Counted from the stretch's first letter, positions 16,496 through 19,586 are shown. The stretch is DNA of 32,000 bases from Gammaproteobacteria bacterium (GCA_965279305.1 OZ257143.1:1-32000), one strand, 5' to 3'. Numbers and translations are program-made. The notes: generated from the letters alone by a model not told the origin.

Positions 16496-18406
16496 TTAGG
16501 TAATGCTGTAACTTCCTGTTGGAGTAAACATTATATTATCAGGCAGTAAATGTTTCAGATCGTCTTGTACTCTAGCATTAAATGCATTAAATATAGTGCC
16601 AAAGTTTTGTGGATCAGTTCTCCTAAACATTTCTTTTCCAATAAAGACATCTAAGTCTCTCAATCGTTTTTCAGTAAAGTTTTGTTTCAACTCTGGTATT
16701 ACTTTAAATTCCTTGTTAAGCAAATAAGTAGAAAAAAGATTTGATAGATTACATATACTTAAATAAAAAACATGGGGATTGATATCTTTCAGTGATCCCA
16801 ACTCCCTAGATATAGCAGAAAATTTTTCCCGTAATTCTTCGTGTTGTCTTAGCAATAATTCAAAGTTATCACTACCTATTTCACGCAACAATGGAAAAAA
16901 ATATTGGCTTTCTAAACTCAAATACGTGTTAATAAAACCATTCGGACTTGCAAAACTACTCGCAAAAGTAGCGACAGACATTTCATTTAAAACATTCATA
17001 TTACCCGCGGATACTATCAACATAGATAGCTGCCCCATTATGTATTTAGGGATAATTGAATAAAAGCTAAACAGTTGTTCGGGTTTAGGAGAAATTTTCT
17101 TATACATTCTAAGAGTATTACCCTGCGATTCAGGTGCTTCTTCTTTCTCTGCTTCGTTAGTGGGCTCAACTTCTACAGGATAGAAATTTCTAATTACTTC
17201 AAAATCGCTCAAGAGTTCTGCTTTATCAGTAGTATAGAAAGACACTATGGCCATAGGCCCTTCTAAACTTTTTGCTTGATGCATAATTCTACCGGGTGTC
17301 AGAAAATGTCTTAGAACACTATCGGATCTCGTAGGCGCTTTTTCTTTTAAAGTAGCAACAGCGCCTTCTACTTGTGGATACCAACAAAATGCACCTAGAG
17401 TTCTTCTTTCTTCAATCGGAATTGCAGTAGGTAAAGGTAAACCCATCTGTAAACGAAAATGGCCTTCTTCAAAATTAAATCCTATATATTTTTCAAACAT
17501 TTCGGGCGCTAAACCACCCGGTGGGCGTGCCGCAATTTCAACAAAGACTAACTCCCCATCAAGTTTTCTAAATATTTCATGATGAGTAGCACCTTCTGGA
17601 AGAGGAGAAAGTGCTTCCAAGACTCGCTGATTAAACTTCACTAATCTCGCATGTTCAGGTTCCTCAGGCGTAACAATACGACTTCCATAAGGTTTTCCAA
17701 GACGATAATCAGCATTAGGATACGTATAGAGATAGGGTTGTGCGTGTTGAGCTTTTCCATTTTGGATCAAACTATCAACATGGTAAAGTGTTCCTTCTAT
17801 AAATTCATCTAATTCATAATTAGTTTCAGTAGCATGTGCTTCACACCACTGTGTTAGATCTTCTGGTGTTTTTAAATCCGCCACTCCTAAACTTCCAACG
17901 GAATCAATCGGTTTAGCAAAAATATGATCGCTACCTATCACTGTCCTTATATGTTCAATATAGGCAGTTTTATCTTTTTGGTACTCAGATGGAGAAAATA
18001 TTATATATTTTGGAACTCTAATACCTTGGCGCTCAACCATCTCTTTCATTACTTTTTTATTTAAAAAAGGTTCCGTATCTTTTTCTTTAGGTCCTTCCAA
18101 ATTAAATTGCTCACGTAATCTACCTGCCATGGCTAAAAGATGTTCGTCATTGGTAATAATACCTAAGTCTTCAATGGCAATATCGTTTTTTACTATAAAA
18201 TCACTTATCTGTTTTGTGAGATCAGCTAAGGAAAAATCAGACACCACTATTGATAAAAATCCAGATTTTCTTTTTTCAGGCAATCGTCCTAATGTCGCTT
18301 TACTAGCAATTAAAAGAAATTGAACTCCCTTTTGAGTTGCAAAATCAAAATCAACTCTTACAGTAAACACTTTGGAAAGAACCACATAATATTTTTTTGT
18401 TTTCAT
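16496..18406 (-). CDS. ATP-grasp carboxylate-amine ligase-like enzyme with an extra ~210-aa C-terminal domain of unknown function
   Basis: The ORF track gives 16496..18427 from GTG. The ATG at 18406 (MKTKKYY) has AAGGAG 6 nt upstream. ATP-grasp hallmarks by eye: FLNKKVMKEMVERQGIRVPKY, IFAKPIDSVGSLGV, LDEFIEGTLYHVDSL, THHEIFRKLDGELVFVEIAARPPGG. Residues from ~430 to the end (SFYSIIPKYIMGQL...RRTDPQNFGTIFNAF...) match nothing I recognise. Confidence 0.75.
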   Translation of the reverse strand: MKTKKYYVVLSKVFTVRVDFDFATQKGVQFLLIASKATLGRLPEKRKSGFLSIVVSDFSLADLTKQISDFIVKNDIAIEDLGIITNDEHLLAMAGRLREQFNLEGPKEKDTEPFLNKKVMKEMVERQGIRVPKYIIFSPSEYQKDKTAYIEHIRTVIGSDHIFAKPIDSVGSLGVADLKTPEDLTQWCEAHATETNYELDEFIEGTLYHVDSLIQNGKAQHAQPYLYTYPNADYRLGKPYGSRIVTPEEPEHARLVKFNQRVLEALSPLPEGATHHEIFRKLDGELVFVEIAARPPGGLAPEMFEKYIGFNFEEGHFRLQMGLPLPTAIPIEERRTLGAFCWYPQVEGAVATLKEKAPTRSDSVLRHFLTPGRIMHQAKSLEGPMAIVSFYTTDKAELLSDFEVIRNFYPVEVEPTNEAEKEEAPESQGNTLRMYKKISPKPEQLFSFYSIIPKYIMGQLSMLIVSAGNMNVLNEMSVATFASSFASPNGFINTYLSLESQYFFPLLREIGSDNFELLLRQHEELREKFSAISRELGSLKDINPHVFYLSICNLSNLFSTYLLNKEFKVIPELKQNFTEKRLRDLDVFIGKEMFRRTDPQNFGTIFNAFNARVQDDLKHLLPDNIMFTPTGSYSIT

Positions 18407-18434
18407 CGTCATCTCCTTTGACAGCACTTTTTAT

Positions 18435-19586
18435 TTAAGTAACTTTTGGTGCAGCACTACTTGCAGGTGCAGGCGCATTTGTAACAGCTATTCCTTCTGC
18501 CACTTGTACAAATTTCTTCAGTGCTTCTGCACCCGTTAGTTCCTGACCTTGTAGAACATCGCTAGCAGGAATAATTCGAGAACGTACATGTGTAGGTATT
18601 GAAAAGGTGCTAGTCATATAAACTTGATCTAATCCAGAACCATATGCACAATTTTTCCCACCTACTTCTCTAAGAAAATGTCTAGGTTTACCAGATGGGT
18701 CAGGAATAACAAATGCTTGCATTTCCGGATTATGACAACCATAAGTCATATAATATGTCACCCCTTTTTCTTCCATTTTTTCTACGGTAGCTATTATATT
18801 ATTGTGGAGAGTAGTTCTAGGGTAAAGTTCCGTGTACATGGCTACGTTTCCAGAACGCGCTCTTATAGTTTCTGGATAAGGTGGATTAAGTGTAACAAAA
18901 TCACCTGCTTGCATATCAGATAATGCCAACAAGAAATCACCTGCCATAAAAGTCACTTTATTTGCTTTTAACAGAGTGGATATTCTATCCACTTCTTGTT
19001 TAAATGATTCTAATGATAAAGGCGCTTCATCTAGATAACCTGGAACAGATCCACCTTTTAAATAACCATCACGATAAACAAGATTTTCTCGATCATCATG
19101 ATATAAAGTGCCACCGCGTGAATGATTGATAATAAATGGAAGAATCAATGATTTTTCATCTATGCTTGTCTGTGCATTGTAGGTATTAATCAAGTCTTGA
19201 AAAAATTGCTTTTTGTCAGCTGCTTTCGAATACTCTTTTACTAAATATTCATATTTTTGTTTTACGTCATTGGGCTTATCTCTGATTAAAACTAAAGTAT
19301 TGATAAGCGCTTTATCACTATCATTAATAATATATTCTTGTGCTAAACCTAACTCCATTGCAGCTAAACTTAACGAGGCTGATCCAGAAAAAGGTTCAAT
19401 ATGTCTCTTAAACTTTCTGCTGCTTGTATTGGATAAAATAACATCGAAATCATCATTAAGCGGACGTCTGTCAATGGAAAGTTTTCCCGACATATCCGGC
19501 CAACTTAAATTTCTATTTCCAATATAATATAATGGGCCACCATTATTATTGAATCGATCTTGTCCTTTTTGATCTGCTGCATACAT
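18435..19586 (-). CDS. Divergent orphan D12-class (Dam-like) N6-adenine-type methyltransferase
   Basis: 383 aa. Motif I HIEPFSGSASLSL (cf. Dam EPFVGAGSV). Motif II-like INDSDKALINTL. Motif IV FVTLNPPYPE (NPPY). Degenerate N-terminal YYIGNR in place of the Dam WAGGK. About 50-aa Ala/Pro/Ser-rich C-terminal tail. No endonuclease partner. 28 nt upstream of the ATP-grasp gene. Confidence 0.7.
   Translation of the reverse strand: MYAADQKGQDRFNNNGGPLYYIGNRNLSWPDMSGKLSIDRRPLNDDFDVILSNTSSRKFKRHIEPFSGSASLSLAAMELGLAQEYIINDSDKALINTLVLIRDKPNDVKQKYEYLVKEYSKAADKKQFFQDLINTYNAQTSIDEKSLILPFIINHSRGGTLYHDDRENLVYRDGYLKGGSVPGYLDEAPLSLESFKQEVDRISTLLKANKVTFMAGDFLLALSDMQAGDFVTLNPPYPETIRARSGNVAMYTELYPRTTLHNNIIATVEKMEEKGVTYYMTYGCHNPEMQAFVIPDPSGKPRHFLREVGGKNCAYGSGLDQVYMTSTFSIPTHVRSRIIPASDVLQGQELTGAEALKKFVQVAEGIAVTNAPAPASSAAPKVT

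Follow-up and report, generated by a model that had tools for sequence, protein, structure and literature searches.

A D12-fold methyltransferase, an ATP-grasp ligase and a hemerythrin-like part near an ehp-type phenazine cluster: a candidate tailoring module in a Legionellales bacterium

The window analysed here is a stretch of 32,000 nucleotides from a Gammaproteobacteria bacterium (GCA_965279305.1 OZ257143.1:1-32000), and its subject is a pair of genes at 16496-19586 on the minus strand, which encode a divergent D12-class methyltransferase and a 636-residue ATP-grasp ligase. The initial annotation, made from the sequence alone, described the pair as an undescribed two-enzyme modification module and offered three hypotheses for it: (a) secreted effectors, (b) hypermodification of a DNA base, and (c) tailoring of the product of a neighbouring phenazine pathway. 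Analysis of the locus revealed a third part, a hemerythrin-like protein or domain, so that the module is no longer one of two enzymes. In what follows, M denotes the D12-fold methyltransferase, A the ATP-grasp ligase and H the hemerythrin-like part, while M::A and A::H denote fusions. The components in the window are as follows.

18435..19586, minus strand: M, a 383-residue divergent D12/Dam-fold methyltransferase predicted to use S-adenosylmethionine (SAM), Pfam PF02086
18407..18434, minus strand: spacer between M and A, 28 nucleotides, holding an AAGGAG ribosome-binding site
17162..18406, minus strand: core of A, residues 1 to about 415, putative ATP-grasp ligase of the L-amino-acid-ligase type
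16622..17077, minus strand: H domain of A, degenerate and hemerythrin/HHE-like, joined to the core by a Glu/Pro-rich linker

The methyltransferase, the ligase and the hemerythrin-like part

The longest open reading frame (ORF) for A begins at GTG 18427 and would encode 643 residues. The 636-residue form (16496-18406, minus strand) and the 28-nucleotide gap are nonetheless the right ones, because an AAGGAG Shine-Dalgarno sequence lies 6 nucleotides ahead of ATG 18406 and the homologues of A start at the equivalent residue; the ORF calls likewise agree with the positions originally given. The proposed shared promoter, TTGCTT-17-TATGTT, is present as a sequence at 19665-19637, but promoter-like matches in the region occur at chance level (17 found against 20.3 expected). 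Since no terminator-like site was found on the minus strand between 15000 and 21000, a single transcript carrying M and A is plausible from the sequence. The genes near M include no restriction endonuclease partner, as had been stated. PADLOC returned generic methyltransferase and ABC-ATPase matches only, with M matching the MTase_II and orphan methyltransferase models and A matching none.

M scores 38.6 bits against the Pfam D12 model PF02086 (cut-off 22) and 47.6 bits against the NCBIfam dam model TIGR00571, so far under the cut-off of 114.85 for the latter that M is to be regarded as divergent. The motifs by which it had been recognised are all in place, namely YYIGNR at residues 20-25, EPFSGSAS (motif I) at 64-71 and NPPY (motif IV) at 234-237, and they follow the order of the alpha group, in which the SAM-binding motif I (FxGxG-like) precedes the catalytic (D/N)PPY. 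Across 26 members of the family, Y21, G23, N24, P65, G68, A70, S71, P235, P236 and Y237 are invariant, and position 234 is N in 24 and D in two. The insertion of about 20 residues before motif I exists but is common to the whole family, not peculiar to M. The C-terminal Ala/Pro/Ser tail, thought to comprise about 50 residues, is reduced to about 18 (residues ~366-383): residues ~330-365 are conserved across the family, and 352-369 are predicted to form a helix. A disordered, small-residue tail of this kind is found in the window copy of M alone.

The AlphaFold2 (AF2) model of M has a mean pLDDT (predicted local distance difference test score) of 87.3. When it was compared with the PDB by Foldseek, E values below 1e-8 were obtained solely for DpnM, EcoDam, T4Dam and 7m6b, at 13-17% identity and with template-modelling scores (TM-scores) of 0.65-0.78 normalised to the target; DpnM gave an E value of 1.2e-13 and EcoDam a TM-score of 0.78. 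M is therefore modelled with the three-dimensional fold of Dam and DpnM. Because the profile alignment of M to the PDB sequences can be trusted only between motifs I and IV, it was not used to map the DNA contacts of Dam. The M family is acidic to neutral (isoelectric point, pI, 5.1-7.2), and M does not stand with a restriction partner, among phage genes or as a solitary housekeeping gene; it adjoins, or is fused to, a ligase in phenazine clusters. The acidic pI, the cluster context and the ligase fusion are indirect signs, drawn from sequence, that point away from DNA as the substrate.

The claim that A contains a complete ATP-grasp ligase core was confirmed by a confident AF2 model and by its matches to L-amino-acid ligases. 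Over residues 1-420 the block-mean pLDDT is mostly 80-98, the best PDB match is RizA (4wd3, E 4.6e-11), and Foldseek ranks 1-6 are occupied by RizA, BL00235 and BacD/YwfE (E 8.5e-24, TM-score 0.73 normalised to the target). K117, K165, D168, E277, E290 and R294 are invariant in 14 homologues. Homologues of A extend over just its first ~415 residues, at no more than 42% identity. Scores stay under the curated thresholds of ATP-grasp_4 (21.3 against 27 bits), Dala_Dala_lig_C (17.1 against 24) and PRK07206 (52.3 against 302). Remoter relatives reside in other biosynthetic clusters, including those of Hafnia, where the gene lies beside a radical-SAM gene, and Streptomyces. From sequence and model together, A is predicted to be an ATP-dependent ligase of the L-amino-acid-ligase type.

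The C-terminal domain of A, which the initial annotation could not place, proved to be hemerythrin/HHE-like through its phmmer relatives, Pfam and profile comparison. An exhaustive phmmer search with the last 224 residues of A recovered five stand-alone proteins, P0088-P0092 (E 1.5e-13 to 2.7e-5), all five of which match Pfam Hemerythrin (PF01814). Comparison by hhalign of the profile of the window domain, relatives included, with the H genes of two other loci, L033 and L042, gave a probability of 99.1% and an E value of 5e-19. Intermediate sequences and profile comparison were needed because direct BLASTP of the C-terminal domain against the H protein of L042, and against a 352-residue ORF in the window, was not significant; nor did the window domain match any Pfam model directly at E values up to 1. 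At the metal-ligand columns, where all seven relatives carry H, E, H, E, H, H and E, the window copy carries P, Q, Y, E, H, Y and K, so that two of the seven positions of the set H, E, HxxxE, H, HxxxE are kept. The AF2 model of this domain is helical and of low confidence; its block-mean pLDDT of 31-58 meant that no fold search was made with it. By sequence criteria, the window H domain is a degenerate hemerythrin-like domain.

Recurrence of the three parts and the phenazine setting

The same three parts occur together in other loci, in the arrangements H|M|A, H|M::A and, in the window, M|A::H. In L033 (overlapping L053/L054), an H gene is followed by M (52% identical to that of the window) and A (41%, E 2e-118); L038 holds the tail of the same H gene, then M, then A after a gap of 2 nucleotides; and in L042 the H gene is followed by a single 784-residue M::A ORF, whose protein was recorded independently as P0096. 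H is thus a separate gene immediately upstream of M in L033, L042 and L038. The order M-A is shared by two lineages, with 52-55% identity to the window for M and 41-42% for A. Extremely few proteins belong to the A subfamily: when 5.8 billion were searched with a profile, five clusters at 41% identity or more came back, three of which adjoin M (the window, P0093 of the L033 type and P0094 of L038), and the P0096 fusion is a further M-linked case beyond those five. P0002, P0006 and the methyltransferases linked to an ATP-grasp gene fall into a single clade, whose signature is NPPYPET-RAR. P0002 is a paralogue of M on the same 1.87-Mb contig (359 residues, 59% identical) and belongs to this clade. 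A survey of co-occurrence, as suggested at the outset, therefore links one subclade with the ligase, while the broader methyltransferase clade of Legionella species lacks it. The view of a functionally coupled and undescribed methyltransferase/ATP-grasp module was strengthened by adjacency in a second, distant lineage and by the single ORF of L042.

Genes of phenazine biosynthesis surround these loci. On one side of the L053/L033 trio lie a shikimate operon and a DAHP synthase gene, and on the other lie orthologues of EhpK and EhpL (59.5% and 47% identical, respectively, to those of Pantoea), followed by an orf112-like gene, a split PhzE and PhzD. The shikimate operon (L053 564-7272) is complete, with genes for EPSP synthase, shikimate kinase, chorismate synthase, DHQ synthase, DHQase-shikimate dehydrogenase and DAHP synthase. 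In L042, PhzA/B precedes the trio; in the window, about 3.4 kb separate M-A from the phz core; and P0048, the closest stand-alone homologue of A, is encoded directly behind PhzG-PhzF-PhzA/B. A separate observation concerns L031 (9739-15084), where a 1781-residue protein is encoded downstream of a stand-alone ATP-grasp gene in a metagenomic phenazine cluster; it has AMP-binding, thioesterase, NB-ARC and TPR regions, an odd fusion of biosynthetic and STAND-like parts.

From 23.0 kb to its edge, the window carries a complete phenazine core together with EhpG-like and EhpF genes. The five core functions (PhzA/B, D, E, F and G) are all encoded at 23349-31958, and every one of them matches its Pfam family.

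23014..23352, minus strand: small conserved cluster protein of 112 residues (orf112), weak YdhR/ABM-like match (Pfam ydhR, E 0.07)
23349-24041, minus strand: split PhzE, GATase part, Pfam GATase
24034-25227, minus strand: split PhzE, chorismate-binding subunit, Pfam Chorismate_bind
25224-25850, minus strand: PhzD isochorismatase
25888-27021, minus strand: DAHP synthase, PhzC-like
27005-27901, minus strand: PhzF, Pfam PhzC-PhzF, E 5e-75
27926-28285, minus strand: 119-residue ORF between PhzF and PhzA/B, weak matches to small membrane proteins
28431-28919, minus strand: PhzA/B, Pfam PHZA_PHZB, E 4e-75
28947-30242, minus strand: EhpG-like aldehyde dehydrogenase/LuxC, 37.5% identical to the protein at the Pantoea EhpG position and 63% to that of L031
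30239-~31309, minus strand: EhpF orthologue, PDB 3l2k/3hgu, E 2e-96
31326..31958, minus strand: PhzG, PNPOx-type flavoenzyme, Pfam PNPOx_N and PNP_phzG_C; the window ends just after it

Copies of orf112 that are 50-57% identical adjoin PhzE in L031 and L033. The window PhzE is 46% identical to Pantoea EhpC; PhzE is also split at L031 1-813 and L033 8075-9947, and Pantoea and an E. coli plasmid cluster encode it in one piece. The 119-residue ORF has no family match and no homologue at any other locus (tblastn, E 1e-4). The carboxylate-reduction pair EhpF/EhpG is present in the window, and the assignment of EhpF is firm on its E value of 2e-96 to the solved EhpF structure. Among ORFs of at least 100 residues between 15.2 and 32 kb, neither the class-I methyltransferase EhpI nor EhpM/N/O was found, although the cluster may run past the edge; the window also lacks ehpR, the VOC gene for resistance. 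By gene content, the cluster is of the ehp (D-alanylgriseoluteic acid, AGA) type. A further ehp-like phenazine cluster lies on the IncFIB plasmid of E. coli O170:H18 (L041, NZ_CP076707, 3808-19801), with an EhpF 60% identical to that of the window, a VOC gene, a small non-ribosomal peptide synthetase, an FAD oxidoreductase, a DAHP synthase and a ClbA-type PPTase.

On the other side of the pair, the minus strand up to 15.1 kb carries rpoC/rpoB-sized ORFs, small presumed ribosomal-protein ORFs and an EF-Tu-like ORF (13927-15117), where the rpoC, rpoB and ribosomal calls are from ORF sizes and EF-Tu from its translation read by eye, not from a family search. The 7.8-kb stretch after the EF-Tu-like ORF holds an F-box/ankyrin gene, A, M, the 352-residue ORF and an ABC half-transporter.

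15231-16451, minus strand: F-box and ankyrin-repeat protein, an effector-like gene bordering the A side of M-A
19694-20752, minus strand: 352-residue ORF, sub-threshold F-box-like and Tox-ODYAM1 matches, both E 0.11
20824..23004, plus strand: ABC half-transporter with transmembrane and nucleotide-binding domains, Pfam ABC_tran, E 1e-30

A tblastn comparison with the other trio loci (E 1e-5) turned up no homologue of the F-box/ankyrin protein or of the 352-residue ORF, and the two ORFs bracketing M-A therefore look like lineage-specific, effector-like insertions. The ABC half-transporter might export the product of the cluster, of which it is an uncertain member; an ABC gene also adjoins A in L038, but its 33% identity to that of the window, over the ATPase domain only, is weak evidence.

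Proposed role and competing explanations

The occurrence of M and A side by side or fused inside phenazine clusters suggests that the pair most likely decorates the antibiotic, not DNA or host proteins. Hypothesis (c) fits this evidence, the pair being embedded in ehp-type clusters, while hypotheses (a) and (b) gained no support. We consider it fairly probable that M, A and H constitute a conserved module by which a Legionellales bacterium tailors the phenazine of an ehp-type (griseoluteic-acid-like) cluster. The narrower proposal, that a D12 fold was recruited to methylate the phenazine or its aminoacyl side chain in a complex with the ligase and the hemerythrin-like protein, is more tentative, and our confidence in it stops a little short of even. 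M is probably not a DNA methylase despite its fold, as far as its sequence and context can tell.

In the proposed pathway, PhzA/B, D, split E, F and G would yield phenazine-1,6-dicarboxylate, one carboxylate of which would be reduced by EhpF and EhpG, with EhpK and EhpL where present. A would activate a carboxylate as an acyl phosphate and then couple an amino acid to the reduced phenazine, the job of EhpM/N/O in Pantoea; the linkage could equally be an ester or an amide, and ester formation would parallel the D-Ala-D-Lac ligases. A probably takes as its acceptor a phenazine alcohol or amine, in place of a second free amino acid. With SAM, M would methylate the same small molecule, either at a ring hydroxyl, replacing the class-I enzyme EhpI, or at an amino or amide nitrogen of the adduct, a target suggested by the chemistry of the NPPY motif. 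H may act in its relatives as a di-iron partner, oxidative or scaffolding, whereas the window copy, its metal site lost, would probably be retained as a structural domain. The simplest view would be a non-orthologous replacement of the Pantoea tailoring enzymes.

Several points weigh against the assignment of the module to phenazine tailoring. The substrate of M, and even its catalytic activity, are matters that we infer. To our knowledge, no D12-class enzyme acts on anything but nucleic acid, and NPPY enzymes methylate nitrogens, while griseoluteic acid carries its methyl group on oxygen. L033, L038 and L042 are mutually 73-83% identical and represent one lineage, so that the independent support amounts effectively to two deep lineages plus two different fusions; the evidence for the M::A fusion is a single 4-kb metagenome contig, and homopolymer runs lie close to its junction. 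The phz cluster of P0048 contains A yet no M within the 15.7 kb available, and in the window M-A is parted from the phz core by the ABC gene and the 352-residue ORF and flanked by F-box genes. M also keeps every element of the D12 architecture, with its helical target-recognition region and a beta-hairpin (E174-181), and may therefore still bind DNA. Lastly, an apparent operon in L035 (5544-8235) and L036 (1908-4095) consists of Ada, a methyltransferase of the same clade and a VOC/glyoxalase (EhpR-family) gene, the Ada protein having Zn-binding, AraC helix-turn-helix and MGMT domains and its gene overlapping the start of the methyltransferase by 14 nucleotides; by its gene content, this Ada-M-VOC operon hints at a role in DNA damage or toxin binding.

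These last points lead to the explanation that M is a nucleic-acid N6-adenine methyltransferase, acting on DNA or on rRNA or tRNA for self-protection or regulation in the face of a DNA-damaging phenazine, while A tailors independently. We hold this to be unlikely. In its favour, all structures matched at E values below 1e-8 are DNA methyltransferases, motifs I and IV are intact, the PADLOC matches are limited to MTase_II and orphan methyltransferase models, the L035 clade member stands between the MGMT-containing Ada and an EhpR-family protein, and members of the sister clade are found amid resistance-type genes (APH, ANT, GNAT). However, the single M::A ORF and the strict adjacency of M, A and H argue for a shared substrate or a complex, the pI range of the family is unusual for a DNA-binding methyltransferase, the dam score falls far under its cut-off (47.6 against 114.85 bits), and the Pantoea ehp cluster, where resistance comes from EhpR, needs no such gene. 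If M were instead an ordinary orphan Dam-like methylase and only by chance the neighbour of an unrelated ligase, the absence of an ATP-grasp gene within 10 kb in 29 wider-family loci and the existence of A relatives without M would fit, but conservation of the adjacency at 41-55% identity, two different fusions, the restriction of linked methyltransferases to one clade and the linkage of three of five clusters of so rare an A subfamily, plus the P0096 fusion, make chance adjacency the most improbable of the explanations considered. The same 41-55% identity argues against a recent transfer of the cassette from the window lineage.

Secretion of M and A as Dot/Icm-type effectors, with host DNA or protein as the target of methylation and host proteins as the acceptors of amino acids, is very unlikely. 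Effector-like genes, the F-box/ankyrin protein and the ORF with a weak F-box-like match, do flank the pair, and the disordered tail is peculiar to the window M. ATP-grasp folds also have precedents among L. pneumophila effectors (Lpg1684 and Lpg1925; PMC11696984). Against the effector reading, a text search of that 368-effector atlas gave no instance of the term D12, and the two matches to "Dam" shown both lie in its references, one as the surname of an author and one within the word "damage". None of the other three trio loci has the F-box genes, metabolic clusters enclose the trio, and the relatives of A are bacterial natural-product ligases from the Hafnia and Streptomyces clusters, not protein ligases of the TTL/CDC123 type. 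Marginally less likely still is the hypermodification of a DNA base by methylation and amino-acid ligation. The DNA-methyltransferase fold of M and the M::A fusion of L042 would suit it, and, according to the initial annotation, computational predictions place ATP-grasp enzymes in systems that modify DNA bases. Phage or defence context is lacking, A is without a PADLOC match, partners for hypermodification such as a glycosylase or a kinase are missing, and the setting is a chorismate/phenazine pathway. The M family, besides, is acidic.

Known counterparts and the wider methyltransferase family

Among the closest known systems is the ehp cluster for D-alanylgriseoluteic acid in Pantoea agglomerans (Erwinia herbicola) Eh1087. 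It shares with the window the phenazine core, EhpF and an EhpG-like gene, and with L033 the EhpK and EhpL orthologues (59.5% and 47%) that stand beside the trio there; by analogy, the pathway would in both cases need one methylation and one aminoacylation. It differs in using a class-I SAM methyltransferase and an adenylating enzyme, a carrier protein and a KASIII-like protein (EhpM/N/O), and it has no D12 or ATP-grasp gene, whereas the window has a D12-fold methyltransferase, an ATP-grasp ligase and a hemerythrin-like part instead, a split PhzE and no ehpR. The D-alanyl-griseoluteic acid precedent first cited for the ligase therefore fails as an ATP-grasp precedent, since the Pantoea cluster has EhpM/N/O in its place. 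Giddens et al. in 2002 are said to have assigned EhpM/N/O to the D-alanine step. The amino acid of AGA is esterified to a hydroxymethyl group and not bound to the phenazine carboxylate. The use of an ATP-grasp enzyme by the Pantoea AGA cluster was considered and rejected, as the cluster shows AMP-binding, ACP and KASIII-like genes; ATP-grasp matches on Pantoea and Burkholderia plasmids were likewise dismissed as counterparts of A, at less than 30% identity and with the one examined (H3) in an unrelated small cluster.

Among individual proteins, the D12-class, alpha-group enzymes Dam, DpnM and T4 Dam share with M the fold, the motif order and the helical target-recognition region with its hairpin. 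M differs from them in its 13-17% identity, in having about 100 extra residues, in an N-terminal insertion peculiar to its family and a C-terminal helix, in its acidity and dam score, and in its position in a biosynthetic cluster, with a ligase fusion in L042. RizA, BL00235 and BacD/YwfE have the three-domain ATP-grasp core and the natural-product context of A, which shows 14-18% identity to them and differs in its extra degenerate hemerythrin-like domain and its methyltransferase partner or fusion. In Pseudomonas, PhzM carries out N5-methylation and resembles class-I O-methyltransferases, and PhzH forms a carboxamide and resembles asparagine synthetase. As the trio would, they methylate a phenazine or derivatise its carboxylate after the core has been assembled, but their folds are unrelated, and neither is fused or partnered with a hemerythrin-like protein. 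In the streptozotocin pathway, the N-methyltransferase SznE, the di-iron oxygenase SznF and ATP-grasp ligases act on one amino-acid-derived intermediate; the three proteins come from other families, the likeness is one of analogy only, and the window H is without its metal ligands. The literature searched contained nothing on a D12 methyltransferase/ATP-grasp/hemerythrin-like tailoring trio, on fusions of its parts or on phenazine clusters of Legionellales. Phenazine tailoring is already known, and the set of three is undescribed in that literature.

Should M act on a phenazine, the annotation "DNA adenine methylase" would be wrong for a whole clade of Legionellaceae. This clade, with its members that carry an ABM-like C-terminal domain or are linked to GNAT genes, would then be the first non-nucleic-acid branch of the D12 class, with a bearing on the interpretation of methylomes and on the search for natural products in genomes. 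Four Pantoea enzymes (EhpI, M, N and O) would have in the trio a compact, non-orthologous substitute, which would also be a testable route to new aminoacyl or methylated phenazines, and an effector-carrying Legionellales bacterium with a reduced genome of about 1.9 Mb would make an AGA-like phenazine antibiotic. A host-associated Legionellales lineage of small genome keeps the full phenazine pathway beside its ribosomal and tuf operon, which raises the question of what use a redox antibiotic has to an intracellular bacterium.

The search for relatives of M yielded 46; all those with a source name belong to the Legionellaceae, and the rest come from metagenome or sequencing-run assemblies. The 29 wider-family loci consist of 28 from Legionella species or metagenome-assembled genomes and one distant Neisseria Dam-like match, and no ATP-grasp gene lies within 10 kb of the M gene in any of them. 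A GNAT gene of about 145 residues follows the M-like gene in 21 of the 29, and further neighbours encode APH, GNAT-APH, SDR, MerR-QueF and cupin proteins. Wider-family proteins often bear an extra C-terminal domain of about 100 residues with a weak Pfam ABM match (E 0.0065), and fragments of this region are labelled "antibiotic biosynthesis monooxygenase" at NCBI. Judged by domain assignments, the company of the sister clade (GNAT, APH and VOC genes) is small-molecule-modifying.

The neighbourhood is kept across many Legionella species (L001-L025, for example L019 6009-17514 and L005 6001-7871). Its order begins with a SKI+GerE regulator, a GNAT-APH fusion, APH, a MerR-QueF fusion, the D12-like methyltransferase and the 145-residue GNAT, and ends with an SDR, an APH/choline-kinase, GNATs, cupins, an LD-carboxypeptidase and a GNAT-methyltransferase fusion; from these predicted functions it looks like a xenobiotic- or antibiotic-modifying island. 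The MerR-QueF protein (L019 8580-9881, minus strand, with equivalents in 10 loci) has 433 residues and combines a MerR helix-turn-helix with full QueF_N and QueF nitrile-reductase-like domains, an unusual fusion of regulator and enzyme that is transcribed divergently from the methyltransferase.

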